This document shows positions 5,544 through 54,425 of a DNA stretch of 64,000 nucleotides, piece after piece. The DNA comes from Candidatus Kerfeldbacteria bacterium (GTDB taxonomy: Bacteria; Patescibacteriota; Patescibacteriia; SBBC01; CAIJZX01): the NCBI GenBank assembly GCA_016193315.1, contig JACPSJ010000001.1, forward strand, positions 471,478-535,477, read 5' to 3'. The notes beneath the pieces were generated by a model. The model ran no database searches. It saw nothing but the letters and a program-made list of their open reading frames with translations, and was not told where the DNA came from. Numbering within the stretch: the stretch's first letter is position 1; every line of letters begins with the position of its first letter. The position numbers and the translations under genes are program-made.

Positions 5544-6950
5544 ATGACGACTGTTTCGACGGCCCGTCAGTTTTCAATATCGGTCATTAGCCTGGGCATA
5601 CTCGGGGTAAGTTTTGCGACTCCGGCCGCGGCGCAATCTACAACCTGGCAACGGACGGCAGCTTTTGCGATGCCGAGCGAGGGCTCAACCACCGACGTTT
5701 TTGGGGGCGTGTTTCGAGGCGGAGCGAGCGTCGCCGCTGGTGATATTGACGGCGATGGCGACGAAGAAATTATCCTTGGCGCTGGGCGCGGTGGTGGACC
5801 GCACGTGGAAATCTACCGACCCGACGGCCGCCAAGTGGGTTCGTTTTTCGTTTTTAAACGGTCCCTGCACGCTGGTCTGAGCGTGGCGGCTGGCGATCTC
5901 GATGGCGACCACCAAGCAGAAATTATCGTCGGTCCGCGCGGAGACTACGCCCCAGAAATCCAAATCTACGATGACCACGGCCGCCGACAAGCTTCCTGGT
6001 TGGCCTTTGAGGCGTCGTACACCGGGGGTATTGAAGTCGCGGTCCTCCGGGCTGAGGGCGATCGGGCGGGCATGATTCTGGTCGCCAGCGGCAGCGGTCG
6101 CGACCAGGAAGTCCGAGCCTTCAGCCCGACCGGCCAACTACTTTTTCAGGATTGGTACCCCCACGGTAGGAATCCGGGCCACGGACTCGACATTGCCGCC
6201 ACGGACAGTTCCGTCTTTCATGAACCGGTGTTGGTGAGTGTACCCGGTGTCGGCGAGAAACCGTTGGTCTTAGTCCATGGTTTGTACTCCGGACGACTGC
6301 TGGCCTCCTGGCTGGCCTATGACCAGCGGGTGAAAACCGGCTTGTCAGTGGCGGCCGCCGACGGAACGGTAGTCACCGGTCCAGGTCGGCGGGGTGGTCC
6401 GGAAGTCCGGATATTCAGCGTTCGCGGTGTTCTTGATCGCGCCTACCGGGTATTCGAACCGACCTATTTCGGTGGTCTCGAAGTCGGCCTTCTCCGCCGT
6501 GGCGGCCGTCTCGAGTCAGTCGCCACCCCCAGCGGCAAACCGAGCCATTGGCTCCATCCGAAAATGGACAAGGCCATTGTGATCGACTTATCCGAACAGC
6601 AGTTGTACCTACTCGAGGGTGATCGGGTGATTTCGGTCCGGTCGGTATCGACCGGCCAATGGTCAACCCCGACGCCAGTCGGTAGCTTCCGGACGAAGAA
6701 TAAGATCGGCGTGGCCTACTCGCGGCGCTACGGATTGTACATGGAGTATTGGATGGCGTTTACGCCGGACGGCGCCTACGGACTCCACGCCCTGCCGTAC
6801 TGGTTGCTACGGAATGGGCAGAAGCACTACGAGGGCACCAACCACCTGGGCACGCCAGTTTCCCACGGTTGCATCCGCCAACGCCTCGAGGATGCCCGGT
6901 CGCTCTATGACTGGGCACCGATTGGGACGACCGTCATCGTTCGGCCCTAA
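5544..6950 (+). CDS. Secreted FG-GAP/VCBS-repeat protein fused to a C-terminal L,D-transpeptidase (YkuD) catalytic domain
   Basis: Signal peptide (FSISVISLGILGVSFATPAAAQ). Repeated GDIDGDGDEEIILG / GDLDGDHQAEIIVG FG-GAP motifs. C-terminal YkuD motif ... SHGCIR ... with the catalytic Cys. Confidence 0.75.
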   Translation: MTTVSTARQFSISVISLGILGVSFATPAAAQSTTWQRTAAFAMPSEGSTTDVFGGVFRGGASVAAGDIDGDGDEEIILGAGRGGGPHVEIYRPDGRQVGSFFVFKRSLHAGLSVAAGDLDGDHQAEIIVGPRGDYAPEIQIYDDHGRRQASWLAFEASYTGGIEVAVLRAEGDRAGMILVASGSGRDQEVRAFSPTGQLLFQDWYPHGRNPGHGLDIAATDSSVFHEPVLVSVPGVGEKPLVLVHGLYSGRLLASWLAYDQRVKTGLSVAAADGTVVTGPGRRGGPEVRIFSVRGVLDRAYRVFEPTYFGGLEVGLLRRGGRLESVATPSGKPSHWLHPKMDKAIVIDLSEQQLYLLEGDRVISVRSVSTGQWSTPTPVGSFRTKNKIGVAYSRRYGLYMEYWMAFTPDGAYGLHALPYWLLRNGQKHYEGTNHLGTPVSHGCIRQRLEDARSLYDWAPIGTTVIVRP

Positions 6951-6966
6951 GGCTGAGCGGCTGGGC

Positions 6967-6995
6967 TTGTCACAATTGACCCAGGGTCGTATACT
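6967..6995 (+). promoter_or_regulatory. Putative sigma70-type promoter for secDF (TTGTCA-N17-TATACT)
   Basis: ttgtca 6967-6972, 17-nt spacer, tatact 6990-6995. An 8-bp inverted repeat ctgatggt/accatcag lies immediately downstream (6996-7021). Confidence 0.45.
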
Positions 6996-7027
6996 CTGAT
7001 GGTTCCATCGTTGACCATCAGTGTTGC

Positions 7028-8674
7028 ATGCGTCGCTCCCGGGTCTGGTTCAGTTTTGGCTCCATTGTTGTCCTGGCTTTGTTAGCTGGCTATGTTGACT
7101 GGCCACAGGCACCGAAGCTAACCTTCCCGCCATTCAACCGGTCGTTCCCGCTCCGTCTCGGCCTTGATATTCAAGGCGGCAGCAGTTTGCTGTACGAAGC
7201 CGATGTCAGTAAAGTTCCGGCTGGAGATCGAGATTCGGCCTTGGCCGGTGTGCGCGATGTGATTGAACGCCGGGTCAATGCTTTTGGCGTGGCCGAGCCG
7301 GTGGTCCAAACCAGCCGGGTCGGTGGGCATTACCGCGTGGTGGTGGAACTGGCCGGTATCCATGACGTCAACGAGGCCATCCGTCAAATCGGCGAAACGC
7401 CGCTGTTGGAGTTCCGTAAGCCAGCCGGTCTACCAGACGCCGAAGCGAAGGCCAAGGCCGAAGAAGTACTGGCCAAGGCCAAGCAAGCAGGCAGTGATTT
7501 TTCCGCCCTGGCCAAAGAGTTTTCCGACGACCCCGGCAGTCGCGACCGGGGTGGAGATTTGGGTTTTGCTCGCCCCGGACAGTTTGTGCCAGAGTTCGAG
7601 CAGGCCTTGTTCGATCAATTGACCGTCGGCCAAATCAGCGACCAAACGGTAAAATCAAAATTCGGGTACCACATTATCAAGAAAATAGAAGAACGCGAGG
7701 TGGACGAGGACGAAAAGAAAATCAAGGAGGTTCATGGGGCCCATATCCTAATCGCCAGTCTCGAAAGTTCTCAAGAGGTCGGTAACTACCTGCCGACGAA
7801 ACTGTCGGGGAAACAGCTGCGACGGGCGGACGTGACTTTTGATCCGAATACTGGGGCGCCGGAAGTACAGTTGCAATTCAACGCCGAGGGATCAAAGTTA
7901 TTTGCCGAATTGACGAAGCAATACCTCCAGCGAGTGATTGGCATCTATCTGGATGGCCAGCCAATTAGTCTGCCGGTCGTCCAGTCAGAAATCACCTCTG
8001 GCACGGCGGTCATCACCGGCAACTTCAGTCTCGACGAAGCTAAGCAGTTGGCCCGGCGTTTGAACGCCGGGGCGCTGCCAGTGCCAATCACCCTCGTGAG
8101 CCAGCAGAACGTTGGCGCCAGTCTTGGGCAGTCGGCCGTGGAGCGAAGTTTTGCGGCCGGTTTGCTGGGGCTGGTTTTCGTAGCGGTGTTCATGATCTTG
8201 TACTATCGATTACCTGGCTTGCTGGCCGTCGTGGCCCTGGTGATCTACAGCCTGCTGGTGCTGGCGATTTTTAAGCTCTGGCCGGTGACCCTGACCTTGG
8301 CCGGCATGGCCGGCTTCATCCTCTCGATCGGCATGGCCGTCGATGCTAATATCCTCGTCTTTGAACGAACCAAGGAGGAGCTCCGCGCCGGACGACCATT
8401 ACGGTCGGCGATTGATGAGGGCTTTCGGCGAGCCTGGTTGTCGATTCGTGACTCCAACGTCTCCAGCCTGATTACCTCCTTCATTTTAATTTGGTTTGGC
8501 ACCAGCTTGGTCAAGGGTTTTGCCTTGACCCTAGCCATTGGGATCCTGGTATCGATGTTTTCCGCCTTGACGGTCACCCGCACCTTTCTGCACCTGGTGA
8601 CTGGCCCATGGATGGGCCGGCATTTGTGGCTCTTTGGCGTCTCCAGCGCACCAGCGACTTCGTCCGATGTTTAG
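7028..8674 (+). CDS. secD: Protein translocase subunit SecD; its periplasmic P1-head region carries parvulin-like motifs
   Basis: N-terminal TM plus SecD P1 base motifs ([25 protein letters not shown]) and the C-terminal 6-TM SecD core. The internal segment has GGDLGF ... FGYHIIK ... AHILIA motifs. Confidence 0.9.
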
Positions 8675-9572
8675 GATCATCCAAAAACGCCGCTGGTTGT
8701 TTATCCTGTCACTCCTAATTTTGGTACCAGGGCTGGTGGCGCTCGTTCGATTTGGCCTCAAGCTGGGCATTGACTTTACGGGCGGGACGCGAATGGTAGT
8801 TGCCTTTAGCGGGGACCGACCGAGCGGAACGTCGGTCATCGCCACGGTCAGCGATTTAGACCTCGGCCAAGTGACCACCCAAACCGCGGGTCAGAAAGAA
8901 ATGGTCTTGCGGTTGTCGAGCATCAGTAATGACCAACGTCAGCGCCTGCTGGAGCGATTGCAGGAGAAATTTCCGGGCGCGATGGAAGCCAGTTTCGATT
9001 CGATTGGCCCAACCATCGGCGCCGAACTGCTCCGCAAGGCCTATCTAGCCCTCGGTCTCGTGTTGCTGGCCATCGTGGTCTACGTCAGCTGGGCTTTCCG
9101 GCGGGTCAATGTCGGTCCGGTACCGGCCTCAGTCTACGGTTTGTCCGCCATTGTCGCCTTGGCCCACGATGTCTTGGTAGTGGTCGGCATTTTTGCCATC
9201 CTCGGTCACTATCGTGGAGCGGAAATCGACAGCCTGTTCGTGACCGCGGTCCTGACGGTGCTCGGTTTTTCGGTCCACGACACGATCGTCGTCTTCGACC
9301 GCATTCGCGAACGACTTTTGATCGGTGGTGAGTCGACATTTGAAGACACCGTTAACGTCAGCCTCAACCAGACGCTCACCCGGTCACTCAATACCTCACT
9401 GACCACCTTGTTTGTCCTGGTAGCCCTCTACCTTTTTGGCGGCGAAACGATCAAGTATTTCGTCCTGGCTCTGATCATCGGTATCGTTTCCGGCACCTAC
9501 TCCTCGATTTTCGTGGCCTCGCCATTACTGGTGGTCTACGAAGGCTGGAAGCGGCGGCGGGCACATCGCTAA
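8667..9572 (+). CDS. secF: Protein translocase subunit SecF
   Basis: [26 protein letters not shown] ... GIDFTGGT ... SecF signature. ATG at 8667 overlaps the secD end. Confidence 0.9.
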
Positions 9573-9715
9573 CATCCACGAACGAGCTCTGACGTTTTTG
9601 TTGGCAACAGAGTCTTCTTTCTGTACAAAACAGAGAGCAGTTTTCTTAGATGCTGGTCTTACAGAGCAGCACCACTGGACTATTGGGTCAGCTATGTTAC
9701 TATCACCCACGGAAC

Positions 9716-9744
9716 TTGACAGAGTTGCAACAAAATGCTATATT
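9716..9744 (+). promoter_or_regulatory. Putative sigma70-type promoter (TTGACA-N17-TATATT)
   Basis: ttgaca 9716-9721, 17-nt spacer, tatatt 9739-9744. About 25 nt upstream of the ATG at 9770. Confidence 0.5.
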
Positions 9745-9769
9745 CAATATTGACAGCAATTTATGGTCA

Positions 9770-10960
9770 ATGGCCGTTGAGCAACAATCTTCCGCCGGAT
9801 CGGGCGGTTCCCTTTTGGACCGAGTGCTGCTGAGCCAGCAGTCGGTCGCGCTTGAGCATTTCGATCCGGCCGACATTGTCAACGAACTACTGAAACAACT
9901 GTCGACCAAAGAGACCGACGTCTTGCGCCGTCGGTTTGCGCTGGGGCAGGAGGAAAGAGAAACGCTGGAGAAAATCGGCCAGCGGTACCACGTCACGCGG
10001 GAACGAGTACGGCAAATCGAACGCTGGGCGATTGACCGTCTCCGCCACTCCGGCCCGACCAGAACCTTACTTCACGATCTCGATGTCCTCTTGCAGCAAG
10101 TCTTGGAAGAACATGGCGGTTTGATGCGAGCAGACGAATTGTTCCAAGCTCTCCACAGCCATTCGTCACAAACCGCCCAATCTCAAGCGGCGATCGAATT
10201 TCTGCTCCACGAACTGATGACTGAGAAAGTTGAACGGCGATCGGGGCTCGGGATGAAGCCGTACTGGAAGTTGCGTTTCGGCAGCTTTGAACTGATGCCG
10301 CAGGTCATCGCCGAAGCCGAACGGGTCATTCGGGAGGTCGGCAAACCAATGGACCGGGATCGGCTGCTAGCCGGACTCAGGCAGCGGCCGCTCATTCGCG
10401 AGCAAGCTGAGCAACTCAGCGATCAGATCATCCTCAGCTACCTCAGCGTAGCCAAATCGATTGAGCGGAATCCCTATGGTGAGTACGGTCTGCGGAGCTG
10501 GGGCAGCATTATTCCCCGGCGGATGCACGACAAAATCCTGCTGGTCATGCGCAAGCACGGTCAGCCTCTCCACTTTCAGGAGATTACGCAGAAGATCAAC
10601 GAAATGGGTTTTGACCAGCGTCAGGCCTACCCGCCGACCGTCCACAACGAACTGATCCTCAACGACGAATACGTATTGGTTGGTCGCGGGATCTACGCTC
10701 TGCGCGAATGGGGCTACCAGCCGGGGGTAGTGGCCGATGTCCTAGCCAGCACTCTCCGCCAAGCCGGACGACCGCTGGCCCGGGAAGAGCTGGTGGAGAA
10801 AGTACTCCAACAACGAATGGTGAAACGGAACACCATCCACCTGGCCCTGACCAACAAACAGCGCTTCCATCGTTTACCCGATGGGCGATACGAGCTGGTC
10901 GAATCGGCCAGCGGCCACGGTCCCCTCCTGGTCAAAGGTAAAATATCATCGGCCGAATGA
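9770..10960 (+). CDS. Sigma-70 region-4 domain protein with C-terminal HARE-HTH-like domain(s)
   Basis: N-terminal region resembles sigma70 region 4 (ETDVLRRRFALGQEERETLEKIGQRYHVTRERVRQIERWAIDRLR). C-terminal region resembles the HARE-HTH fold of RNAP delta (ILLVMRKHGQPLHFQEITQKINEMGF ... YVLVGRGIYALREWGY). Confidence 0.6.
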   Translation: MAVEQQSSAGSGGSLLDRVLLSQQSVALEHFDPADIVNELLKQLSTKETDVLRRRFALGQEERETLEKIGQRYHVTRERVRQIERWAIDRLRHSGPTRTLLHDLDVLLQQVLEEHGGLMRADELFQALHSHSSQTAQSQAAIEFLLHELMTEKVERRSGLGMKPYWKLRFGSFELMPQVIAEAERVIREVGKPMDRDRLLAGLRQRPLIREQAEQLSDQIILSYLSVAKSIERNPYGEYGLRSWGSIIPRRMHDKILLVMRKHGQPLHFQEITQKINEMGFDQRQAYPPTVHNELILNDEYVLVGRGIYALREWGYQPGVVADVLASTLRQAGRPLAREELVEKVLQQRMVKRNTIHLALTNKQRFHRLPDGRYELVESASGHGPLLVKGKISSAE

Positions 10961-11049
10961 AACGAGGCTTAGTAGTCGGTTTGGCGAGGAGATTGTAAGC
11001 CGGCCGCTAGGATCATCAACCGAAAGGGGCATCTCCTAACAAACACTCG

Positions 11050-12444
11050 ATGGACATTTCGATCGTCATTCCGGAGTTCGCCAACCCCTTCGCTGCGCTG
11101 TGGTGGGCCTTTACCCACGGCGGTTTTATCATTGTCATCATTGCCCTCGGCTATGGCTTCTGGTGGATCTACCTCCAGGCGATTCAGATTCGTTTTTTGA
11201 CGAGGCGGCGCTATGTCTTACTAGCCATCGATGTGCCCAAAGAGAACGAACAGACCCCCAAAGCGGTTGAGCACATCTTCAGTCACTTTTCTGGCATCTA
11301 CCGTCAGGCCAACCTGGTTGAAAAATATGTCCACGGTTATGTCCAGCTGGCCATTAGCGTCGAACTCGTTTCACTCGGCGGCTACATCCAGTACCTCGTC
11401 CGTTGTCCGGCCGAGCACCGCGACTTGGTGGAGGCGGCCATCTACGCCCAGTATCCTGAGGCCGAAATCTCCGAAGTCGAAGACTATGCCTTTCAAGTCG
11501 CCCCCAAATTCCCGAACGATGAATACGACGTCTGGGCGTCCGAACTCGAGCTGACGAACAAAGAGGCCTACCCGATTCGCACCTATCCTTTGTGGGAACA
11601 CCCGTTAACGCAGACATTCCTGGACCCGATGGCGGCGTTACTGGAAGTTTTGGCCCGCCTCCGGGAAGGCGAACAAATCTGGTTACAGTGGGTCATCCGT
11701 CCACCGGCGAACGACCGCTGGCGGGAACGTGGCTTGGACCTGATTAACAAGCTGATCGGCGCGAAAGTCAAACCCAAGCGCGGCGCTCTTGATGTCCTGG
11801 TCGATACGCCAAGCAATGTCCTGATCGGTACCTACGAAACGATCACCCGGACACTGTTCGAACCAACTAGCGTCACCCAACGGCAGGAGAACGGACCGCC
11901 CAGCCTGATGCAACATTTGGCGCCGAACGTGCGGGCCGTGGTCGAAGGGATCGGTATCAAGATCTCGAAAACCGGCTTTCAAACGAAGGGCCGATTCGTG
12001 TACCTCGGTCGGAAAGATGTCTTCGATCGCACGCGAGTGAACGCCATTTTCGGTGCCTTGCGACAGTTTGCTTCGATGGACATGAACGGTTTCAAGCCGG
12101 ACAAGAAAATGAAAACGAAGCGGAATTATTTTCGGGTTGAGCAGCGAGAAGCAGTCTTGAAACGGCGGATCATCCTCGGCTATCGCGATCGTAGCCTATG
12201 GGCCGGGCGCTCGACGTACGTGCTGAACATCGAAGAGCTGGCCTCGGTTTGGCACTTCCCCGTGCGGACAGTCAAGGCGCCGCTGGTGAAGAAGACTGAA
12301 GCCAAGCGGGGCGAGCCGCCAAGCGCCCTGCCGCTCGGTCAGTTGCCGGAACGGCCGGCCACGCCAACCATGTCTAGCCCCGGGCCCGCCATCGCCCCCG
12401 GTCCGACGCGCGGCGCGGCACCCGAAAACCTGCCAGTCGCCTAG
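11050..12444 (+). CDS. Membrane protein of unknown function (N-terminal TM helices plus about 400-aa soluble domain), partner of the downstream ATPase
   Basis: 464-aa ORF with hydrophobic N-terminus (FAALWWAFTHGGFIIVIIALGYGFWWIYL). Stop lies 2 nt before the next start. No recognised family. Confidence 0.6.
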   Translation: MDISIVIPEFANPFAALWWAFTHGGFIIVIIALGYGFWWIYLQAIQIRFLTRRRYVLLAIDVPKENEQTPKAVEHIFSHFSGIYRQANLVEKYVHGYVQLAISVELVSLGGYIQYLVRCPAEHRDLVEAAIYAQYPEAEISEVEDYAFQVAPKFPNDEYDVWASELELTNKEAYPIRTYPLWEHPLTQTFLDPMAALLEVLARLREGEQIWLQWVIRPPANDRWRERGLDLINKLIGAKVKPKRGALDVLVDTPSNVLIGTYETITRTLFEPTSVTQRQENGPPSLMQHLAPNVRAVVEGIGIKISKTGFQTKGRFVYLGRKDVFDRTRVNAIFGALRQFASMDMNGFKPDKKMKTKRNYFRVEQREAVLKRRIILGYRDRSLWAGRSTYVLNIEELASVWHFPVRTVKAPLVKKTEAKRGEPPSALPLGQLPERPATPTMSSPGPAIAPGPTRGAAPENLPVA

Positions 12445-12446
12445 CC

Positions 12447-14141
12447 ATGCCCGACACTACTGCTGACAATCCGGTCCTGACCCTCTTCGCGACCACTAAT
12501 TTCCGTGGCGTGAAGCGGCCGTTCGGCATCAAACTTGATGATCGGCGGCGTCACATGTATATCATCGGCAAAACTGGGATGGGCAAGTCGACGATGTTGG
12601 AGAATATGATCATCCAAGATATTCGGGCTGGCCGTGGCTTAGCCGTAGTCGACCCACACGGCGATCTAGTCGAGAAAATAGTTAAGTTCATTCCCTCGTA
12701 CCGGGTCAATGATGTGGTCTATTTAAATCCGGCCGACGCCGACTACCCGATCGCCTTCAACATCCTGGAAACGATCAATCCCAGCCAGCGCCACCTGGTG
12801 GCTTCGGGGTTAATTGCCGTCTTTAAGAAACTGTGGATCGATTCGTGGGGGCCGCGGCTGGAATATATCTTGCGGAACACGATCCTGGCCCTGATCGAAT
12901 ACCCCGGCTCGACGCTCCTGGGCGTGACCAGGATGCTGGTCGATAAAGAGTACCGCCAAAAAGTTGTCCGGCACATTACTGACCCGATTATCAAAGTCTT
13001 TTGGCAAACTGAGTTCACCGCTTACGCTAACCAATTCCGAACTGAAGCAGTGGCCCCAATCCAAAACAAAATTGGGCAGTTCCTCTCGAGCTCGATCATC
13101 CGCAACATCGTCGGCCAGCCGAAATCGACCATCGACATGCGCGAGATCATGGATAACGGTAAAATCCTGCTGCTTAATTTGGCCAAGGGCCGGATCGGCG
13201 AAGATAACGCCGCGCTCCTCGGGGCGATGATGATCACCAAACTCCAGGTGGCCGCCATGAGTCGGATTGATGTCCCCGAGAACGAGCGCCGGGATTTCTA
13301 CCTCTACGTTGATGAATTCCAAAACTTCGCCACCGAGTCATTCGCCAACATCCTCTCAGAAGCCCGGAAGTATCGGCTCGACCTGATCATTGCCCACCAG
13401 TACATCGAACAGCTCGATGAGACTGTCCGGGCCGCCGTTTTCGGTAACGTCGGGACGCTGATCTGTTTTCGCGTCGGAGCCGCCGACGCCGAGTTCCTGG
13501 CCAAGGAATTCTTTCCGGTCTTCACGGAAACTGACTTGGTTAATCTGACCAAGTTCGACATGTATCTGAAACTGATGATTGATGGCGTGGCCTCCGAACC
13601 TTTTTCCGCCACCGGCCTACCACCAGTGGATAAGCCGGATGAACTCCAAGACCGGATTATCCGCGTCTCCCGGGAGCGCTATGCCAAGCAACGAGAGGTA
13701 GTCGAGGAGAAAATCTCTCGCTGGTCAGGGATGATGGTCGAAGCCGCGCTCCAGGAAGGCGGCCGGCCCGAGGGTCGTGGTCGCCGAGAATCAGGCGGCC
13801 CGGGGCCGGCCGAAACCCGCGACGGCACACCGAAACCCGCGGTGGAAATACAGAGTCGTCAGCCAGTCGTGACTGAGGGTATTCCCGCGCCCATCTCGCT
13901 GAGCCAGGCGCTTCGTCCAGATTCGCCGCGCCCCGGCCCAGATCGGCCGCGCCGGGATCGACGCCGGCCTCCCCGTCATCGCCCGCCGCCGCGGGCACCA
14001 GCGGCAACGACCGAAGCGGCGTCCATGCCGACGGCCACGAGTCGGCCACCACCGCTGACGCCGCCATCTCCACTCAGTCCAACCCCGCCGACCCCAAAAC
14101 CGTCCCCCCTCCAACCCGGTCAAGTCGTCCATCCATTATAA
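12447..14141 (+). CDS. TraG/VirD4 (T4CP)-like / FtsK-HerA superfamily P-loop ATPase with Pro/Arg-rich low-complexity C-terminal tail
   Basis: Walker A YIIGKTGMGKST. Walker B FYLYVDEFQNF. About 130-aa tail rich in P/R/T (PRRDRRRPPRHRPPPRAPAATT ... PTPPTPKPSP). Confidence 0.65.
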   Translation: MPDTTADNPVLTLFATTNFRGVKRPFGIKLDDRRRHMYIIGKTGMGKSTMLENMIIQDIRAGRGLAVVDPHGDLVEKIVKFIPSYRVNDVVYLNPADADYPIAFNILETINPSQRHLVASGLIAVFKKLWIDSWGPRLEYILRNTILALIEYPGSTLLGVTRMLVDKEYRQKVVRHITDPIIKVFWQTEFTAYANQFRTEAVAPIQNKIGQFLSSSIIRNIVGQPKSTIDMREIMDNGKILLLNLAKGRIGEDNAALLGAMMITKLQVAAMSRIDVPENERRDFYLYVDEFQNFATESFANILSEARKYRLDLIIAHQYIEQLDETVRAAVFGNVGTLICFRVGAADAEFLAKEFFPVFTETDLVNLTKFDMYLKLMIDGVASEPFSATGLPPVDKPDELQDRIIRVSRERYAKQREVVEEKISRWSGMMVEAALQEGGRPEGRGRRESGGPGPAETRDGTPKPAVEIQSRQPVVTEGIPAPISLSQALRPDSPRPGPDRPRRDRRRPPRHRPPPRAPAATTEAASMPTATSRPPPLTPPSPLSPTPPTPKPSPLQPGQVVHPL

Positions 14142-14162
14142 GTTTGGTATACTCGGCAAGCA

Positions 14163-15047
14163 ATGAGCAAGGTATCATGCGTTATTCCTGCTTACAACGA
14201 GGCTGAAAGTCTGCCGCACTTGTGGGCGCAATTGGAACCGGTCTTGCAAGCCTACCCCGACTGGGAGGCGATTGTGGTCAGTGACGGCAGCACGGATTCG
14301 ACCGTCGACGTCGTCCGACAACTTAGCCAACGCCAAGCGCGGCTTCGGCTGGTTGAACAGGGGCGGAATCTTGGTAAATCGGCGGCGCTCATGGCCGGCT
14401 TTGCGGCCGTGACCGGTGACATCATTGTCACCATTGATGCCGATTTGCAAGACGACCCGGCAGAAATTCCCAAGTTGGTAGATGAACTTGAACGCCGTCC
14501 CTACGATGTGGTCGGTGGGTGGAAACAACATCGGCGCGATCCGTGGATAAAAGTACTGTCTTCGAAAATCTTCAATCGCCTGGCCAACCGCGCCCTAAAG
14601 ACAAATTTCCATGATCTCAATTGTGGACTGAAAGTTTTTCGTCGCCCGGTGGTAGACCAGCTTGACCTATACGGCGACCTCTATCGATTCATTCCGCTCT
14701 TGGCGGTGGCCGATGGCTGGCGGGTCGGCGAAGTACCGGTCGCCCATCGGGCCCGGCAGTATGGGCACTCGAAGTATGGGCTACGGCTGAACGGCGCCTT
14801 TGACCTGATTAGTATCCTGCTGCTGACGAAGTACCGCCACCGACCACTCCACTTCTTCGGACGCTGGGGGGGTCTGCTCGTACTCGTTGGCAGCGGCCTA
14901 CTTGTTTATCTTGCTATTATCCATTGGCGGGGGCAGGCCATCGGTGAACGACCGCTGCTTATTTTCGGGGTGCTATTCGTCTTGTCCGGACTACAGCTGT
15001 TTTTCACTGGCTTGCTTGGCGATCTGATTGTCCAACGAAAACGATAA
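14163..15047 (+). CDS. Glycosyltransferase family 2, polyprenyl-phosphate sugar transferase (DPM1/GtrB/ArnC-like) with C-terminal TM helices
   Basis: VIPAYNEAESL ... VVSDGSTD ... DADLQDDP motifs (DxD) and two C-terminal TM segments. Confidence 0.8.
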   Translation: MSKVSCVIPAYNEAESLPHLWAQLEPVLQAYPDWEAIVVSDGSTDSTVDVVRQLSQRQARLRLVEQGRNLGKSAALMAGFAAVTGDIIVTIDADLQDDPAEIPKLVDELERRPYDVVGGWKQHRRDPWIKVLSSKIFNRLANRALKTNFHDLNCGLKVFRRPVVDQLDLYGDLYRFIPLLAVADGWRVGEVPVAHRARQYGHSKYGLRLNGAFDLISILLLTKYRHRPLHFFGRWGGLLVLVGSGLLVYLAIIHWRGQAIGERPLLIFGVLFVLSGLQLFFTGLLGDLIVQRKR

Positions 15048-15637
15048 TGGCGACCACGAACCGGCAGAAGTTCGCCACCGGCAACGTTGTTGTTCAAAGA
15101 TTGATCAACCGTTTTCACCATCAGATCAGCAACTTGGTGGCCGAGCTTCAGCCACAGAATATCTTGGAAGTCGGCTGTGGCGAAGGATTCCTGCTCGATG
15201 TTCTCCACCGGCGCCTGCCGGAGGTGCCAATCTTGGGTTTGGACAACAGTCAGGACGCCCTGTCTGATGGGCATCGATTATTTCCCGATCTGCCGCTCGA
15301 GTTTGGTGATATCTACCACCTGGTGCAACCCGACCGCAGTTGGGATGTGGTGGTGGCCAGTGAAGTTCTCGAACACCTCGACCGACCGAACGAAGCCTTA
15401 GCCGAACTACACCGGGTCGCCCAACGCTATGTTGTGCTGTCGGTGCCCTGGGAACCGTGGTTTCAACTTGGATCGCTGGCCCGGGGCAAGCATCTGCAAC
15501 GCTGGGGTAACCATCCCGAACATCTTAACCGCTGGAATCCGGTCACCTTTCGTCGCTTGGTCAGCCAGCGCCTGGTTGTAGAACGGATGTCCACGCAATC
15601 TTCGTTCCCATGGATGATCGTGGTGGCCAGGGTGTAG
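15047..15637 (+). CDS. Class I SAM-dependent methyltransferase
   Basis: ILEVGCGEGFLL (motif I) ... VVASEVLEHL. TAATG overlap with the upstream GT2. Confidence 0.7.
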   Translation: MATTNRQKFATGNVVVQRLINRFHHQISNLVAELQPQNILEVGCGEGFLLDVLHRRLPEVPILGLDNSQDALSDGHRLFPDLPLEFGDIYHLVQPDRSWDVVVASEVLEHLDRPNEALAELHRVAQRYVVLSVPWEPWFQLGSLARGKHLQRWGNHPEHLNRWNPVTFRRLVSQRLVVERMSTQSSFPWMIVVARV

Positions 15638-16506
15638 GCTGGTCTCGGTTATTCGGCTGGGGGCTGGCGGTGCTGGCCCTGTGGTTTGTTTTTCGTTGGC
15701 TACGCGGCGTTGATCCGCTGGTCTGGCAGCAGTTTCAGTCGCTTGAGGTTACCTCGGTGCTCATCTCTTTCGTTCTGTTCCAGGGCTGGTTTGTATTGCG
15801 GTACCTGGGCTGGGAATTTATCAGCCGTCGCTATGGATTGGATAGCCAGCGTGCATCGAACCTGCGGATGTGGACCCTGAGTGAATTGATGCGGTACATC
15901 CCGGGGAATGTCTGGTCCTTCGCCGCGCGATATCGCGGCGCCAAGGAGCGGGGGACGGGCCGCCGCGGCGCGGCTGTATCCTTAGTGGTCGAAGCGTCGA
16001 ATCTTGTTGCCGGAGCAGCCTTGGTAGCGGCCGTTTTTTGGCGTCCGGAGTGGTGGCTACTGTGGCTATTGGCAGCCGGGGTGTTTGTCACCATCTGGCC
16101 GTGGCTGGTGCGTCGCTTAGCCAGTTGGCGGAAATGGGAATTCCCAAAACCACTGTCATACCGTGATAGCGTGGTGCTCCTGGGAGTCTACCTGGCGGTG
16201 TGGTTGCTCTACGGCCTAGCGCAAGCCATCATCATCTTGTCGATTCCAGGGCTGTCGACTCCGGGCTTGACGTTTCTTCTGGGCATCAATGTCACTGCCT
16301 GGCTGATCGGCTACGTCAGCGTGATCACGCCGATGGGCTTGGGCGTGCGGGAAGTGGCCTTTGTGACATTGCTCAAAAACACGATTGCCCCCGGGGTCGG
16401 CAGCATGCTGGCCGTCCTGACACGTGTCTGGCTCGTGGTGTGTGAACTGGCTTTTCTCGGCCTAGTCACGATTTTCACCAGTCGTCGTCCGGGGTCACTT
16501 GAATAA
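15610..16506 (+). CDS. Lysylphosphatidylglycerol-synthase-TM-like / flippase-like membrane protein (UPF0104)
   Basis: Polytopic membrane protein with the YIPGNVWSFAARY motif characteristic of the LPG_synthase_TM family. Confidence 0.6.
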   Translation: MDDRGGQGVGWSRLFGWGLAVLALWFVFRWLRGVDPLVWQQFQSLEVTSVLISFVLFQGWFVLRYLGWEFISRRYGLDSQRASNLRMWTLSELMRYIPGNVWSFAARYRGAKERGTGRRGAAVSLVVEASNLVAGAALVAAVFWRPEWWLLWLLAAGVFVTIWPWLVRRLASWRKWEFPKPLSYRDSVVLLGVYLAVWLLYGLAQAIIILSIPGLSTPGLTFLLGINVTAWLIGYVSVITPMGLGVREVAFVTLLKNTIAPGVGSMLAVLTRVWLVVCELAFLGLVTIFTSRRPGSLE

Positions 16507-16534
16507 GCAGCCACATGATGATAGTCTGCGGCGC

Positions 16535-17620
16535 ATGAATTCAAGTGGCAAAAAAGTCATGGTTGGCCTCTCCGGCGGCGTTGATAGCGCCGTGGCAGCG
16601 CTTTTGTTGCAACGTCAAGGATACGAGGTTCATGCCGTGTTCATGAAAAATTGGTCAGCCGATGATTTTGGCGGGCCATGTCCATGGGCGGAAGATCAAA
16701 GGAGCGCTCAGGCGGTGGCCGATCACCTCCGCCTTCCACTCGAGACCTGGAACTTCGAGCGTCAATACCGTGATCGAGTCTTTCGGGTCATGCTCCGCGA
16801 CTACGCCAGTGGCCGAACGCCGAATCCTGACATTGTCTGCAATCGAGAAATCAAGTTCTCGTTGTTTCTCGATCGGGCAATCCGGCAAGCTAATTTTGTC
16901 GCCACTGGTCACTACGCCCAAACGCGAGACGGTCGCTTGTTCAAAGCGGTCGACCGCGATAAAGACCAGTCCTACTTTCTGGCGGCCGTTCCGGCTCAGG
17001 CGCTGCGGCACGTTATCTTCCCGCTGGCGCAGATGAAAAAGATGAAGGTCAGACAGCTAGCGAAAGAAGCTGGCCTGCCAAACTGGGATCGTCCAGACAG
17101 CACTGGTATTTGTTTTATCGGCGAAAAGAGAATGTTTGATTTCTTGAGCCGTCATCTGTCAGCCAGTCCCGGTCCAATTAAGCTCTGGGGTGGGGGAGTG
17201 GTCGGTCAACACCTCGGTTTACCTTTCTATACGATTGGGCAGCGGCATGGCTATGGTGTCCAGCTCGATCATCGGCTGTTAGCCCGGACCATCGGTCCTA
17301 GCCAGCCAGTCTTTGTGGCTGCCAAGGAGACGAAGACGAATACCTTGTTCGTTGTACCGGCTGAGTCGCCCGCTCTCGAGGCGAGGGAATTATTAATCGA
17401 TTTTCCACACTGGATCCATCAGCCCGCTTTACCGTGGCGTGGCATGGCCAAATTCCGCTACCGCCAGCCAGACACGCCGGTAACATTGCGGCCGGCCGGA
17501 GAAAAAATCCGTGTCGTCTGTCAAACGCCTCAGCGGGCGATTACTCCTGGACAGTACGCCGTTTTCTACGGCGGCGTGGAGTGTTTAGGCAGCGCGGTGA
17601 TTGACTCGACGGAACAATAA
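16535..17620 (+). CDS. mnmA: tRNA-specific 2-thiouridylase MnmA
   Basis: KVMVGLSGGVDSAVAALLL PP-loop. Conserved cysteines and the C-terminal MnmA domain. Confidence 0.9.
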   Translation: MNSSGKKVMVGLSGGVDSAVAALLLQRQGYEVHAVFMKNWSADDFGGPCPWAEDQRSAQAVADHLRLPLETWNFERQYRDRVFRVMLRDYASGRTPNPDIVCNREIKFSLFLDRAIRQANFVATGHYAQTRDGRLFKAVDRDKDQSYFLAAVPAQALRHVIFPLAQMKKMKVRQLAKEAGLPNWDRPDSTGICFIGEKRMFDFLSRHLSASPGPIKLWGGGVVGQHLGLPFYTIGQRHGYGVQLDHRLLARTIGPSQPVFVAAKETKTNTLFVVPAESPALEARELLIDFPHWIHQPALPWRGMAKFRYRQPDTPVTLRPAGEKIRVVCQTPQRAITPGQYAVFYGGVECLGSAVIDSTEQ

Positions 17621-17628
17621 AGCTAAGT

Positions 17629-18198
17629 TTGGTGAGTCCCACATTACGTTTCGTGCCCTTTTCTTGGAGGTCGGATCATGCGCCATTCTCGCGATACTGT
17701 CTTTGTGCCCGCCTGGTGTTTAGCGGGGCTGCATCTAGTACAGCTTACGTCAACCCTGGCCCACTAACCTTTAACATTCGAGACTCGACCACTGTCACGG
17801 TCTCACGAGGCATAGATGCTCGGCGGCTCTTTTCCGAGGCTGGCTACGAGCCAGACGGAAACCAGAGCCTGGATCTCGATTGCTATCCACTGGCGCGGCG
17901 GACGTACCGTCGTCAGGTTCTCTTCATCGAGGTCGGGACTTTTCGTCAGAGCGAAGACGAGGTTCGCGCGTTCCTGGCGGTCCGGGGTTTTTGTCCAGCC
18001 ACGATAATCGAGGTCCTGCTGGTCGCCAAGGAGTGGGATAACAATCGGTTGCCCTATACCTGGGTTCTTGATCAGACGTTGGCGGAGGAACAGTTAGGAA
18101 CCACGGCTGGATTCTGCAAGTGTAGTGGGCGGCACATTGGGCGCCTTAGTCGACATGATGGGCCATATTCTTCAATCCTCGCCGCCGTCCGAGAGTAA
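17629..18198 (+). CDS. Hypothetical protein (uncertain gene; TTG/GTG start, no internal Met)
   Basis: 189-aa ORF with no ATG anywhere in frame. Followed by a clear terminator. No family recognised. Confidence 0.3.
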   Translation: MVSPTLRFVPFSWRSDHAPFSRYCLCARLVFSGAASSTAYVNPGPLTFNIRDSTTVTVSRGIDARRLFSEAGYEPDGNQSLDLDCYPLARRTYRRQVLFIEVGTFRQSEDEVRAFLAVRGFCPATIIEVLLVAKEWDNNRLPYTWVLDQTLAEEQLGTTAGFCKCSGRHIGRLSRHDGPYSSILAAVRE

Positions 18199-30060: not shown

Positions 30061-31791
30061 ATGATGCATAGTCCGCAGCGCATTCTCAGGGTTGGTCTCC
30101 GCCGGGGAATCTTGGGTGTCGTCAGCTTGGGGGCACTACTTCTACTGGCAGTGGCCAGCCAGCTCGAAACCGTTCAGGCCGCGGCGTTCACCGTTAACAG
30201 TACAACCGATAGCGTGGACATCAGCCCCGGTGACGGCGCCTGTGCTGATAGTGCTGGCGATTGTTCCCTCCGCGCGGCCATTATGGAGACCAACGCGCTT
30301 CCAGGGGCCGACAGTATTACCCTGCCCGCGGGCACGTACACGATCAGCATGGCCGGAATCGGCGAGGACGCTGCTCTGAGCGGCGATCTTGATATTTCCG
30401 ACGACTTGATTGTTTCCGGCGCTGGTGCGGCCGCCAGCCTGGTTGACGGGGGCGCGATCGACCGGGTGTTTGAAATACGTCCAGGGGCGACAGTCCATCT
30501 CCGTTGGCTACGCACGCAGAACGGCGACCCGGTGGCCAATGCCGGCGGCATCCTCAATCATGGGGACCTAACCCTTACTCGCGTTACAGTCACTAACAAT
30601 ACTGGACAGAATTTTGGCGGTGGCATCGCCAACTTCGGGACGATGTCAATTGGGTATTCAACCATCAGCCACAACGACACGGTCGGTGCTAATCTGAGTG
30701 GCGGCGGAGGCGGGATCTACAATGAAGGCACGTTGACCATAACGGGTAGCACCCTAAATGATAACACCACACTTGGACGCGGTGGAGCTATCTATAACCT
30801 TGATCAAACGCTGACGTTGACTAATAGCACGCTCAGTACCAACACGGCCCTAAACGGCGGGGGCATTTTCAACCGCTTCGGAACTGTCACCAGCACCCAT
30901 CTCACCATTACTAACAACACGGCGACCGACAATGGCGGCGGCGTTTGGAACTTCGGCGGAACAATGTCATTGGGCAATACTGTCATCAGTGGGAACAGCG
31001 CCGCCACGGCTGCAGACGATTGCGCCGGCGCGATCACGTCCCTCGGATATAATCTGGCCAGCGATGCCTCCTGCGGGCTTGGCGGAACCGGCGACCTCAA
31101 CAGTACGAACCCCATGCTGGGGCCATTGGCCAACAACAGCGGTCCGACCTTCACGCACGCGCTGCTCACTGGTAGCCCAGCAATTGATGCCGTTCCCCTG
31201 ATCGCCTGCACCGTCAGCACTGATCAACGCGGCGTCCCCAGGCCGATGGGTCCAGCCTGCGATATGGGCGCGTTCGAACGAGTGGTGCCGGAGGCCTGTA
31301 ATAACGTAGCCTTTGACACCATCATTGTTGGCACGGCTGGAAATAATACACTGAACGGCGGAAATGGCCGCGACTTGATCTTCGGCCTAGGCGGTAATGA
31401 CGTGTTGAACGGCAGTAATAATGACGACTGTCTGGTCGGCGGCTCCGGCCACGATCGCCTCAATGCCAGTAATGGCAATGACTACCTTGATGGCGAGGCG
31501 GGTAATGATCGACTGCACGCCAGCAACGGTAACGACACCCTGGTTGGCGGGGACGGCCGCGATGCGCTCAGCGGCAGCAATGGGATTGATCACCTTGACG
31601 GTGGCCTGGGAAACGACACCCTCTCCGGAGGGAACGGTGATGACGTCCTGGATGGCCATGACGGCGACGACCGGTTGTTCGGAGACAACGGCTACGACAC
31701 GCTGAGTGGCGGCGCCGGTACGGACAGGCTCGACGGTGGACTGGGCATAGATTCCTGCATTGGTGAGATCGAACTGTCCTGCGAGATATAG
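30061..31791 (+). CDS. Secreted CSLREA-domain / right-handed beta-helix protein with C-terminal RTX-type calcium-binding repeats
   Basis: Signal peptide. CSLRAAI motif (CSLREA N-terminal domain). Repeated NxxGGGI beta-helix turns. Tandem GGxGxDxL nonapeptides (GGNGRDLIFGLGGNDVLNGSNNDD ...) at the C-terminus. Confidence 0.75.
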   Translation: MMHSPQRILRVGLRRGILGVVSLGALLLLAVASQLETVQAAAFTVNSTTDSVDISPGDGACADSAGDCSLRAAIMETNALPGADSITLPAGTYTISMAGIGEDAALSGDLDISDDLIVSGAGAAASLVDGGAIDRVFEIRPGATVHLRWLRTQNGDPVANAGGILNHGDLTLTRVTVTNNTGQNFGGGIANFGTMSIGYSTISHNDTVGANLSGGGGGIYNEGTLTITGSTLNDNTTLGRGGAIYNLDQTLTLTNSTLSTNTALNGGGIFNRFGTVTSTHLTITNNTATDNGGGVWNFGGTMSLGNTVISGNSAATAADDCAGAITSLGYNLASDASCGLGGTGDLNSTNPMLGPLANNSGPTFTHALLTGSPAIDAVPLIACTVSTDQRGVPRPMGPACDMGAFERVVPEACNNVAFDTIIVGTAGNNTLNGGNGRDLIFGLGGNDVLNGSNNDDCLVGGSGHDRLNASNGNDYLDGEAGNDRLHASNGNDTLVGGDGRDALSGSNGIDHLDGGLGNDTLSGGNGDDVLDGHDGDDRLFGDNGYDTLSGGAGTDRLDGGLGIDSCIGEIELSCEI

Positions 31792-43262: not shown

Positions 43263-44072
43263 ATGGATCTCTCCATTCTCGTCCTCAATTACAAGACGAA
43301 AGGCCTCCTGAAGCAGTGCTTACGTGGTATTCTCGACAGCCAGTTGCTGCTAGCATATGAGGTGATCGTGGTTGATAATGACTCGCGCGACGGCAGTGTC
43401 GGCATGGTTCGACAGCAGTTCCCAGCGGTCCAGGTCATTGCCTCGCCGAAAAACGTAGGCTTTGCCGCCGGCATGAACATCGGCTTAGCTCGGGCGACCG
43501 GTCGGGTGGTCCTGCTTCTCAATCCTGATGTCGCCATCTTCCACCAAGCCGTCGCCACGCTCATCGACTATCTTGATACGCATCCTCAGGTCGGTCTGGC
43601 GGCGCCAAAACTCATTAATCCCGACGGTACCACCCAGCTTTCCTGTTATCGTTTCCCCAACATTTGGACACCGCTGTTACGGCGGACGCCACTCGGACGT
43701 TTCCCCGCCGGTCGACGAACGCTCCGGCGTTACCTGATGAGTGACTGGGATCATCAGGACAACCGTGCGGTCGGTTGGGTGCTCGGGGCCTGTATGCTGA
43801 TTCGTCGTACGTCGCTTGAGCGCATCGGACCGTTCGATGAACGTTTTTTCCTGTATTTTGAGGATGTCGATCTCTGTCGTCGCATGTGGCAAGCCGGATG
43901 GGAGGTCCACTACGCCGCCAGCGCCGAAATGGTTCATTATCACCAACGTCTGTCGGCCGAATACCCAGGCCTCCAGGGGCTGTTCTCCTACCCCACGAGA
44001 ATTCACATCCAGAGCGGCCTGAAGTACTTCAGCAAGTACCTCGGGTCGCCACCCCCGCCGCACCAGGTATGA
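43263..44072 (+). CDS. Glycosyltransferase family 2
   Basis: SILVLNYKTKGLL ... VIVVDNDSRDGS ... NVGFAAGMNIGL ... LLNPDV. Confidence 0.75.
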   Translation: MDLSILVLNYKTKGLLKQCLRGILDSQLLLAYEVIVVDNDSRDGSVGMVRQQFPAVQVIASPKNVGFAAGMNIGLARATGRVVLLLNPDVAIFHQAVATLIDYLDTHPQVGLAAPKLINPDGTTQLSCYRFPNIWTPLLRRTPLGRFPAGRRTLRRYLMSDWDHQDNRAVGWVLGACMLIRRTSLERIGPFDERFFLYFEDVDLCRRMWQAGWEVHYAASAEMVHYHQRLSAEYPGLQGLFSYPTRIHIQSGLKYFSKYLGSPPPPHQV

Positions 44073-46036: not shown

Positions 46037-46040
46037 CTCC

Positions 46041-47048
46041 ATGTTCACCCGACGTATCGGGATTGATCTCGGCACCACCTATACGTTAGTTCACTTACCC
46101 GGTCGCGGAATTGTTCTCAACGAACCGTCAGTGGTAGCAATATCACTGCTCGACAAGAAAGTACTGGCGGTTGGTGACGAAGCAAAAGAGATGATTGGCC
46201 GCACCCCTGACACCATTGTTGCTTCACGCCCACTGAAGGATGGGGTGATTGCTGACTATCGCACCACCGAAGCAATGTTGCGCTACTTTATTAATAAGGC
46301 GCTCGGGGGGGTGCGTTTTTTTCGGGCCGAGGTGATGGTCGCGGTCCCCGGCGGCATCACCTCAACTGAACGTCGAGCCGTGATCGATGCGACGTTAGCG
46401 GCCGGAGCCCGGGCCGCGTATATCATCAAGGAACCGATCGCGGCGGCCATCGGTGCCAATATCCCCATTGGTTCGCCATCCGGGCACATGATCATAGATA
46501 TCGGAGGTGGGACGTCAGAAATCGCCGTCTTGTCGCTGGGGGGCATCGTGGTCAACACCTCGGTTCGGATTGGCGGGAACAAATTCGACTACGCCATTCA
46601 GGAACATGTGCGCAAGAAATACGGCTTGGCGATCGGCGAACGGACCGCCGAAGATATTAAGATTACTATTGGCAGCGCCTTAGTGATGGATGATAAGTTG
46701 TCAACTGATATCCGCGGTCGTGACATGATCACGGGCTTGCCGCGGACGGTCACCATCGTCTCCGATGATGTGACGGAAGCCATCCAGAACGAGCTGGCCG
46801 GTATCATCCAAGCGATCAAGAACGTCTTACAGGATACGCCCCCCGAACTGTCGGCGGACGTGATGGACAAAGGCATGGTCCTGAGCGGCGGTTCGTCCTT
46901 GCTGCGTAATATCGACAAGCTCCTCGCTCAGGCTATCGGAGTCCCAGCCTATGTGGCGGATGAGCCTGAACTCTGTGTCGCCCGCGGCACTGGCGTGGCG
47001 CTTGACAATCTCGAATCGTACAAGCGGAGTATTCTGGCCACCAGATAA
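46041..47048 (+). CDS. mreB: Rod shape-determining protein MreB (paralog 1, embedded in the glycosyltransferase cluster)
   Basis: RIGIDLGTTYTLV ... NEPSVVA ... IIDIGGGTSEIAVLSLGGIV ... actin-fold motifs. Confidence 0.9.
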   Translation: MFTRRIGIDLGTTYTLVHLPGRGIVLNEPSVVAISLLDKKVLAVGDEAKEMIGRTPDTIVASRPLKDGVIADYRTTEAMLRYFINKALGGVRFFRAEVMVAVPGGITSTERRAVIDATLAAGARAAYIIKEPIAAAIGANIPIGSPSGHMIIDIGGGTSEIAVLSLGGIVVNTSVRIGGNKFDYAIQEHVRKKYGLAIGERTAEDIKITIGSALVMDDKLSTDIRGRDMITGLPRTVTIVSDDVTEAIQNELAGIIQAIKNVLQDTPPELSADVMDKGMVLSGGSSLLRNIDKLLAQAIGVPAYVADEPELCVARGTGVALDNLESYKRSILATR

Positions 47049-54423: not shown

Positions 54424-54425
54424 GC

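Follow-up and report, generated by a model that had tools for sequence, protein, structure and literature searches.

What does an ATPase that resembles type IV coupling proteins (T4CPs) do in a chromosomal region without detected conjugation genes, and why does its gene follow, almost without a gap, that of a membrane protein of the DUF8128 family? The question is raised by two adjacent genes in a stretch of 64,000 nucleotides (nt) from Candidatus Kerfeldbacteria (Patescibacteria; GenBank assembly GCA_016193315.1, contig JACPSJ010000001.1, positions 471,478 to 535,477), henceforth called the window, to which all coordinates refer unless otherwise stated. The reading favoured here, which is given a probability of about one half, is that the products of both genes are the halves of a single translocation ATPase, docked to the membrane and vertically inherited in the core genome of Patescibacteria; the pair appears to belong to the core equipment of the phylum rather than to be a stray conjugation or defence gene. 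This reading builds on the observed domain identities, folds, pairing, synteny, and strong purifying selection of the pair. The features of the two genes are as follows (aa, amino acids):

11050–12444, + strand: gene 1, DUF8128 (PF26449) membrane protein, 464 aa
11083–11184, + strand: hydrophobic N-terminal helix of gene 1, aa 12–45 by Kyte-Doolittle hydropathy (AlphaFold helix, aa 13–52)
11206–12264, + strand: alpha/beta domain of gene 1, aa 53–405, predicted to be cytoplasmic, with a fold like that of the VirB4 N-terminal domain
12232–12333, + strand: conserved segment of gene 1 with low model confidence, aa 395–428, EELAS(L/V)WHFPV..VKAP.VKKTEAKRGEPP..LP
12421–12435, + strand: C-terminal P.NLP motif of gene 1, aa 458–462, past a linker of variable length
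12447–14141, + strand: gene 2, ATPase, 564 aa
12447–13736, + strand: core of gene 2, aa 1–430, soluble coupling-protein ATPase of the VirD4/TrwB type
12567–12593, + strand: Walker A GKTGMGKST of gene 2, aa 41–49
13302–13328, + strand: Walker B LYVDEFQNF of gene 2, aa 286–294
13737–14141, + strand: Pro/Arg-rich disordered tail of gene 2, aa 431–564, with two conserved short motifs
13890–13913, + strand: tail motif PISLSQAL, aa 482–489 (ISL.EAL in homologues)
14109–14138, + strand: terminal tail motif LQPGQVVHPL (L.PGQVV in homologues)

Layout and conservation of the gene pair

The two genes have the lengths that a preliminary description, made from the sequence alone, had given them, and are 2 nt apart as described there (TAG stop at 12442–12444, "cc", ATG at 12447); they lie in different reading frames. 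The window is a core, housekeeping region of the Candidatus Kerfeldbacteria chromosome. Pfam scans took in 52 open reading frames (ORFs) of the window, i.e., nearly all of at least 150 aa, and detected no VirB, type IV secretion system (T4SS), relaxase, pilus, or phage families among them, small pilin-sized ORFs not being screened; within this scope, the earlier statement that the 64 kb hold no VirB-like, relaxase, pilus, or phage genes was borne out.

Loci encoding DUF8128 were collected by scanning one genome per GTDB species, which yielded at least 591 loci. The best 80 of these were analysed, 76 of which had enough downstream DNA to judge the adjacency of the ATPase gene. The ATPase gene was located directly 3' of the DUF8128 gene in 61 of the 80 loci (61 of the 76 informative ones), each from a different species, so the pairing is kept among relatives. 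The distance between the DUF8128 stop and the ATPase start had a median of 6 nt, with many pairs 1–9 nt apart or overlapping. The direct upstream neighbour of DUF8128 was a gene for a protein with sigma-70 region 4 and HARE-HTH domains (sigma-r4/HARE-HTH) in 46 of 80 loci and secF in 24, and both secD and secF preceded the pair in 44 of 80. The usual order, secD–secF–(sigma-r4/HARE-HTH)–DUF8128–ATPase, recurs across lineages, often with mnmA a few kb downstream. Close relatives share the order of the whole window, including a GT2 glycosyltransferase gene, a methyltransferase gene, and an LPG-synthase-like gene; the genes downstream of the pair are conserved among close relatives only. The preliminary description had called the pair an orphan module, which holds within the local neighbourhood but not beyond it, as the pair recurs widely in Patescibacteria as a conserved, syntenic module among housekeeping genes. 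That VirD4-like genes are abundant at a distance from virB4 in Patescibacteria has already been published (PMC12102498).

Identities were determined from the best high-scoring segment pair against the window proteins and are given as medians over related loci. The ATPase core was the most conserved (67%), followed by SecD (52%), SecF (47%), MnmA (42%), DUF8128 (40%), and the sigma-r4/HARE-HTH protein (37%), and the identity of the ATPase was above that of SecD in 40 of 40 loci. The strong purifying selection, together with the fixed synteny and the housekeeping context, suggests a core function that is inherited vertically, and the same points speak against a function in a mobile element or in defence.

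The ATPase encoded by gene 2

The product of gene 2 is an ATPase of the VirD4/VirB4 clade that resembles T4CPs in sequence and lacks a membrane domain. Its matches above the Pfam cut-offs are TrwB_AAD_bind, DUF87, and TraG-D_C (PF10412, TrwB_AAD_bind: 3.4e-14, 53 bits against a cut-off of 20.5; PF12696: 26.3 bits against 22), its best sequence match in the PDB is TrwB, and its structure model is similar in three dimensions to solved coupling proteins. Both Walker motifs, which had been named from the sequence and are present at the positions given above, are invariant among 41 homologues. No hydrophobic segment was found (the maximum 19-aa Kyte-Doolittle value is 1.27), and Walker A is reached as early as aa 41. 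The TraG/VirD4-like layout and the missing N-terminal transmembrane (TM) domain of the preliminary description are thus confirmed.

NCBIfam gave only sub-threshold matches for gene 2, namely to TraD, VirD4, CedD, and VirB4 models, and the cut-offs of the T4CP models were not reached (TraD, 56 against 366 bits; VirD4 CD1115 family, 39.7 against 250 bits). No VirB4-domain model in Pfam, of which we take PF03135 (CagE_TrbE_VirB) to be the expected one, matched either protein of the pair, and the score against TIGR00929 was 23 bits against a cut-off of 643. A reading of gene 2 as FtsK was considered and set aside, and so, less firmly, was one as HerA; the features of FtsK/SpoIIIE, i.e., a PF01580 motor, an N-terminus with four TM segments, and a gamma domain, were not found in its product.

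The C-terminal tail (134 residues) consists of 25% Pro and 13% Arg and was correctly anticipated as Pro/Arg-rich. Homologous tails range from ~90 to 220 aa and vary in composition, yet most of them contain both ISL.EAL and L.PGQVV. The tail is therefore more than low-complexity sequence and would be a disordered linker that carries conserved docking motifs.

The DUF8128 protein encoded by gene 1

The product of gene 1 had been described as belonging to no recognisable family. It is 100% identical to the hypothetical protein HYY50_02585, encoded on an 857-kb contig of a Candidatus Kerfeldbacteria metagenome-assembled genome (MAG), and PF26449, named DUF8128 in the gene table, is annotated on this identical protein and on nearly all homologues. 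As the local Pfam copy does not contain the PF26449 model, the assignment is taken from annotation that had been precomputed for the identical protein and the homologues. The family comprises 1,911 representatives at 50% identity (E-value of at most 0.001; library of 1.84 billion proteins).

The AlphaFold model of the protein is confident (predicted local distance difference test, pLDDT, 81; predicted template modelling score, pTM, 0.75) and consists of a long helix and an alpha/beta domain. Where several hydrophobic N-terminal helices had been claimed, the model contains one, which coincides with the single hydrophobic stretch of the sequence. The residues before the helix are acidic and RFLTRRR (aa 48–54) follows the hydrophobic stretch, because of which the positive-inside rule would place the N-terminus outside and the remainder of the protein, including the DUF8128 domain, in the cytoplasm. 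In alignments of 41 and 75 sequences, the N-terminal hydrophobic helix is conserved and the soluble domain well conserved, with a variable linker before the C-terminal motif. The alpha/beta domain contains a near-invariant AIYAQYP.AEI.EVEDY motif (nt 11437–11487). The segment at aa 395–428 has invariant or near-invariant columns in both alignments, and pLDDT is below 50 from aa 410; this segment is a candidate docking peptide. At least 90% of the sequences share P458, N460, L461, and P462 of the C-terminal motif.

In Foldseek searches with DUF8128, the 13 best matches were all chains of TrwK (probability 0.98–1.00; one chain of 457 residues), and EccE was the second-best fold match. P-loop proteins (TrwB, FtsK, HerA, and the VirB4 C-terminal domain, 4ag5) were not among the best matches, from which we infer that the part of VirB4 matched by DUF8128 is its N-terminal domain. 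Sequence links were negative in the local Pfam (query and 41 alignment members), NCBIfam, and PADLOC, as were searches of the profiles built from 41 and 75 sequences against PDB sequences. In hhalign comparisons, DUF8128 reached a probability of 0.4% with TrwK of R388, and its profile reached 0.5% with TrsD of plasmid pGO1, a weak comparison as the TrsD target was a single sequence, and at most 0.5% with TrsE.

Published surveys and the probable counterpart in Southlakia epibionticum

A survey of Patescibacteria reported 5,713 VirD4-type homologues in 2,918 of 3,035 genomes and VirB4 in 2,417 genomes, only 148 of the 5,713 VirD4-type genes being near virB4; its authors stated that exaptation of t4cp genes "cannot be ruled out" and described no partner gene (Quinonero-Coronel et al. 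2025, PMC12102498). In Southlakia epibionticum, the 921-aa protein SEML1_0293 was flagged as core and enriched in Patescibacteria (Wang et al. 2023, PMC10633639). Its domains (PF10412, 402–719; PF12696, 655–716; PF01935, 405–618; PMC10633639) begin ~370 aa later than the ATPase domains of the window protein, and its gene directly follows SEML1_0294, which encodes an essential sigma-r4/HARE-HTH protein that is also enriched in Patescibacteria (Wang 2023, Table S1). Judging from the published size, domain coordinates, and synteny, SEML1_0293 is presumably a fusion of DUF8128 and the ATPase. By transposon sequencing it was called non-essential at each of three time points, and its normalised reads fell from 5,817 to 2,940 and 1,372 while those of its neighbours remained flat (PMC10633639); the decrease at most hints at a fitness cost. 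For Southlakia, the same study lists a true FtsK that is essential (SEML1_0096) and a ComEC that is non-essential, with no ComFA annotated, and reports the T4SS genes as essential, the T4SS being described as having no recognisable coupling protein (PMC10633639).

Southlakia also encodes a second, essential T4CP-like protein, SEML1_0142, of 1,019 aa with a P-loop domain that starts ~380 residues in (Wang et al. 2023, Table S1). A second paralogue of this type may be why Patescibacteria genomes have about two T4CP homologues on average. As regards fusions, an apparent DUF8128–ATPase fusion in locus L047 was rejected as an artefact of a 100-N scaffold gap. None was found among 120 homologues of locus L076, which is from a MAG labelled Saccharibacteria and seemingly not close to Southlakia.

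Proposed mechanism and alternative explanations

The simplest reading of the pair is a VirB3–VirB4-like layout in split form. DUF8128 would be anchored in the membrane by its one N-terminal helix and would expose its domain similar to the VirB4 N-terminal domain on the cytoplasmic face, where it would dock the ATPase of gene 2, which, like its relatives, would form a hexameric ring. DUF8128 would thereby fill the role of VirB3 and the VirB4 N-terminal domain, or that of the N-terminal TM domain in ordinary coupling proteins; the suggestion of the preliminary description that the membrane part comes from the upstream protein is in line with the conserved pairing, the tight spacing, the predicted topology, and the fold. 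The Pro/Arg-rich tail of the ATPase may recruit a partner or substrate via its two short motifs, and the cargo would be DNA that moves to or from a channel encoded apart from the pair, namely the competence channel ComEC or a T4SS-like apparatus elsewhere in the genome. DNA is favoured because of the substrates of the T4CP family and the precedent of CedD, because ComEC and SEML1_0293 were both called non-essential, and because Southlakia has no annotated ComFA-type uptake ATPase. That the pair is, beyond this, a self-contained and phylum-specific DNA-import motor that replaces ComFA-type uptake ATPases appears quite doubtful. If true, it would help nucleotide-auxotrophic Patescibacteria to take in DNA from hosts or the environment, and such extreme sequence conservation of a gene that is dispensable in rich co-culture would point to a function that matters in nature and not in the laboratory. 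On this doubtful reading, the pair could also be a split form that has survived from near the common ancestor of VirB4 and VirD4.

Several points weigh against the membrane-docked ATPase. The ATPase gene is not adjacent to DUF8128 in 15 of the 76 informative loci, in eight of which its place is taken by genes for glycosylation and surface proteins, and no DUF8128–ATPase fusion occurs among the 80 loci. Kinship between DUF8128 and VirB4 is suggested by the predicted fold, with negative sequence and profile comparisons and with modest TM-scores to TrwK (0.31–0.36), and the structure model of gene 2 is of medium quality (pLDDT 71.5). The pair itself holds no channel component, and DNA is the most likely cargo by analogy with the T4CP family and CedD; more generally, we infer the physical complex, the hexamer, the substrate, and the direction of transport. 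Furthermore, essentiality in laboratory co-culture does not explain the extreme conservation of the ATPase, as the likely Southlakia orthologue was called non-essential.

The main rival is an ordinary coupling protein of a patescibacterial T4SS whose VirB4/VirB6/VirB8/pilin cluster is encoded elsewhere, DUF8128 replacing a lost TM domain and the system delivering protein effectors or DNA to a host. The assignment of gene 2 to the T4CP family by hidden Markov models and fold is what this explanation would lead one to expect, a partner with a fold like that of the VirB4 N-terminal domain could fit contacts of the VirB3/VirB8 type, and the motif-bearing tail found here is similar to the tails with which TraD-type T4CPs bind substrates or adaptors. 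T4CP genes are, moreover, often away from virB4, which ~80% of Patescibacteria genomes carry (PMC12102498). Even so, the explanation is considered somewhat unlikely: the T4SS genes of Southlakia are essential while SEML1_0293 was called non-essential, the Southlakia T4SS was described without a recognisable coupling protein (Wang et al.), the synteny of the pair is with secDF and not with T4SS genes, and genomes with VirD4-type genes outnumber those with virB4 by at least 501, a soft count given MAG incompleteness and the second paralogue. The synteny with secDF could also be taken to indicate a Sec-linked motor for protein handling, i.e., a membrane-tethered unfoldase or translocase for envelope or surface proteins. 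The 44 of 80 loci with secD–secF upstream, secA nearby in the window and in locus L083, glycosyltransferase genes 3' of the pair in the window and close relatives, the fold match to EccE, which is the partner of the protein-secreting EccC ATPase, and the transport of proteins by some T4CPs (PMC12857230) are all in keeping with such a motor. However, small genomes can keep gene order without a functional link, the sigma-r4/HARE-HTH gene often lies between secF and the pair, the downstream genes are kept among close relatives only, and the pair contains no domain for signal-peptide handling and no chaperone domain. A Sec-linked role, for which gene order is the basis, is thus possible but very unlikely.

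Two further explanations separate the pair from translocation or its genes from each other. The different evolutionary rates of the two proteins (40% against 67% median identity) and the 15 non-adjacent loci would be expected of mere neighbours with unrelated functions, an explanation that is nevertheless highly improbable given adjacency in 61 of 76 species-level loci at a spacing typical of translational coupling, given the probable fusion of both in Southlakia, and given their complementary features, DUF8128 providing a TM helix and the VirB4-like N-terminal fold and gene 2 a TM-less motor of the VirB4/VirD4 type. Least credible, with a very small chance, is a HerA/MADS/Dnd-type module for defence against phages or plasmids, a defence-type module in general having also been considered in the preliminary description. 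In PADLOC, the ATPase matched the HerA-type mad8 model (6.3e-18) as a single component, so that no complete system was obtained; gene 1 had no match, and the ORFs scanned against Pfam include no further defence component. The match to a defence model reflects shared ATPase ancestry. Defence islands are typically patchy and fast-evolving, the opposite of the cross-lineage synteny, the housekeeping region, and the purifying selection stronger than that on SecD that are seen for the pair.

Upstream region and other features of the window

The following features precede the gene pair:

7028–9572, + strand: secD (with a parvulin-type peptidyl-prolyl isomerase (PPIase) insert) and secF, in conserved synteny upstream of the pair
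9650–10960, + strand: sigma-70 region 4 and HARE-HTH protein (Pfam Sigma70_r4, 5.8e-14; HARE-HTH, 1.6e-11)
9716–9744, + strand: sigma-70-like promoter match, TTGACA-17-TATATT with upstream TG, 11 of 12 consensus positions
10987–11037, + strand: 7-nt inverted repeat AGGAGAT/ATCTCCT in the 89-nt spacer before gene 1

The longest ORF of the sigma-r4/HARE-HTH gene probably begins too early, the real start probably being Met41 (nt 9770), since homologue matches begin near aa 50. Met41 is located 25 nt past the promoter match, which is the best such site in 6900–17700 and, as a match to the consensus only, is a candidate for the operon promoter. No strong terminator-like site was found on the + strand between this match and 14141.

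A conserved hairpin had been described at 10978–11030, directly upstream of the pair. The arms of the inverted repeat are at 10987–10993 and 11031–11037, with 37 nt between them, and the minimum-energy fold of the spacer leaves the repeat unused. The spacer region is barely more stable than shuffled sequences (z = -1.8; 12 of 200 shuffles fold equally well) and is absent in two close relatives, in which the upstream gene stops 22 nt short of DUF8128 or shares 4 nt with it. The hairpin was hence rejected as a functional element on the fold, the shuffle test, and the missing conservation in these relatives, and the inverted repeat is probably without function.

In SecD (7028–8674), a parvulin-type PPIase (Rotamase, PF00639/PF13616, aa 136–222) is inserted in the periplasmic P1 domain, i.e., a foldase is built into a Sec accessory subunit. 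The insert is also present in the relatives represented by loci L083 and L084. In eight of the DUF8128 loci (L043, L053, L055, L056, L062, L064, L071, and L078), DUF8128 is followed by GT4, DUF4012 (~800–870 aa), and DUF11 surface-repeat (~650 aa) genes, this stretch being located at ~7300–13200 in each locus. The window likewise contains a DUF4012 gene (43886–46036), which lies within a glycosylation cluster.

Among the 52 ORFs, Pfam matches identified genes for cell wall and shape (MurB, L,D-transpeptidase, two MreB, MreC, PBP2, alanine racemase, and an FtsQ-like protein), protein export (SecA, SecD, and SecF), and translation and transcription (MnmA, AlaRS, LysRS, the ribosomal proteins S11, S4, and S9, and RpoA), as well as MetK, RseP, and many glycosyltransferases. 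No tRNA or Rfam matches were obtained in the window. The two MreB paralogues (45999–47048 and 52029–53084) are accompanied by MreC (53105–53887) and PBP2 (54303–56333) in this lineage of ultra-small cells. A 576-aa protein (30061–31791) contains six matches to the RTX calcium-binding nonapeptide repeat, and several ORFs before its gene (23.9–29.2 kb) have no Pfam family.

Novelty and significance

A large part of bacterial diversity belongs to Patescibacteria, and for most of their phylum-specific protein families no function is known. Already known are the abundance of "orphan" T4CPs in these bacteria, the non-essentiality of one orthologue, and the Pfam entry for DUF8128; no literature was found on PF26449 or DUF8128, or on DUF87 in Patescibacteria. 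New within the literature searched are the conserved pairing of DUF8128 with a T4CP and its synteny, the fold of DUF8128, which is like that of the VirB4 N-terminal domain and like EccE, the split VirB3/VirB4-like architecture, the conserved tail motifs, and the conservation of the ATPase above that of SecD. Two unexplained annotations, DUF8128 and an "orphan" VirD4-like ATPase, are thereby joined in one testable model of a split motor in the style of VirB3/VirB4, which offers an explanation of why thousands of T4CP genes of Patescibacteria are located away from virB4. The pair also bears on the origin of the VirB4 and VirD4 motors and possibly on that of the EccE-type partners of type VII systems. 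Current understanding is not overturned by it.

Comparison with known systems

Type IV coupling proteins (TrwB of R388, VirD4, TraD/TraG, DotL/IcmO, and Cag-beta) have their own N-terminal TM domain, whereas gene 2 encodes none and is paired with DUF8128. Unlike these proteins, the pair is unlinked to relaxase or mating pair formation (Mpf) genes among the ORFs scanned, it is chromosomal, syntenic, and highly conserved rather than carried on a mobile element, and its ATPase scores far below the NCBIfam equivalog cut-offs. In comparison with VirB3–VirB4 (TrwM–TrwK of R388), the layout is split over two proteins, with an ATPase half that is T4CP-like by sequence. VirB4 itself holds both domains in one polypeptide, while here they are encoded by two ORFs in different frames with a stop and 2 nt between them. 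DUF8128 resembles the VirB4 N-terminal domain in fold, whereas neither protein of the pair has sequence similarity to VirB4 models and neither VirB6 nor VirB8 is encoded in the neighbourhood. DUF8128 is also, though much more weakly, similar in fold to EccE of the EccE–EccC pair of mycobacterial ESX (type VII) systems. EccC, however, is an FtsK-like ATPase of several domains that has its own TM segments, and the exported substrates of ESX systems are proteins.

With regard to function, CedD/TedD of Sulfolobales and Thermoproteales is comparable, as it is a VirD4-like ATPase that is encoded apart from the channel genes and is required for DNA import (PMC11823120). Some CedD orthologues have no TM domain and are thought to be bound to the membrane through another protein (PMC11823120). 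CedD differs in being archaeal and induced by ultraviolet light and in working with CedA/CedB, no DUF8128 partner having been described, and gene 2 matches the CedD model NF053655 only weakly (1.2e-7, 30.8 bits against a cut-off of 600). SEML1_0293 of Southlakia shares the three Pfam ATPase domains and the sigma-r4/HARE-HTH upstream neighbour with gene 2, but is a single 921-aa protein and not a pair.

With regard to gene arrangement, a counterpart is TrsD–TrsE of the Staphylococcus plasmid pGO1 (MPF-FATA; locus L081, 25886–26569 and 26584–28602), in which a small protein is encoded directly 5' of a shortened VirB4-type ATPase. TrsD is shorter than DUF8128 (227 against 464 aa), and the genes for TrsD and TrsE are located inside a conjugation operon. 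A remote relation of TrsD to the VirB4 N-terminus has been described (PMC12102498), and TrsD–TrsE may, by analogy, serve as a formal precedent for the split arrangement proposed here.

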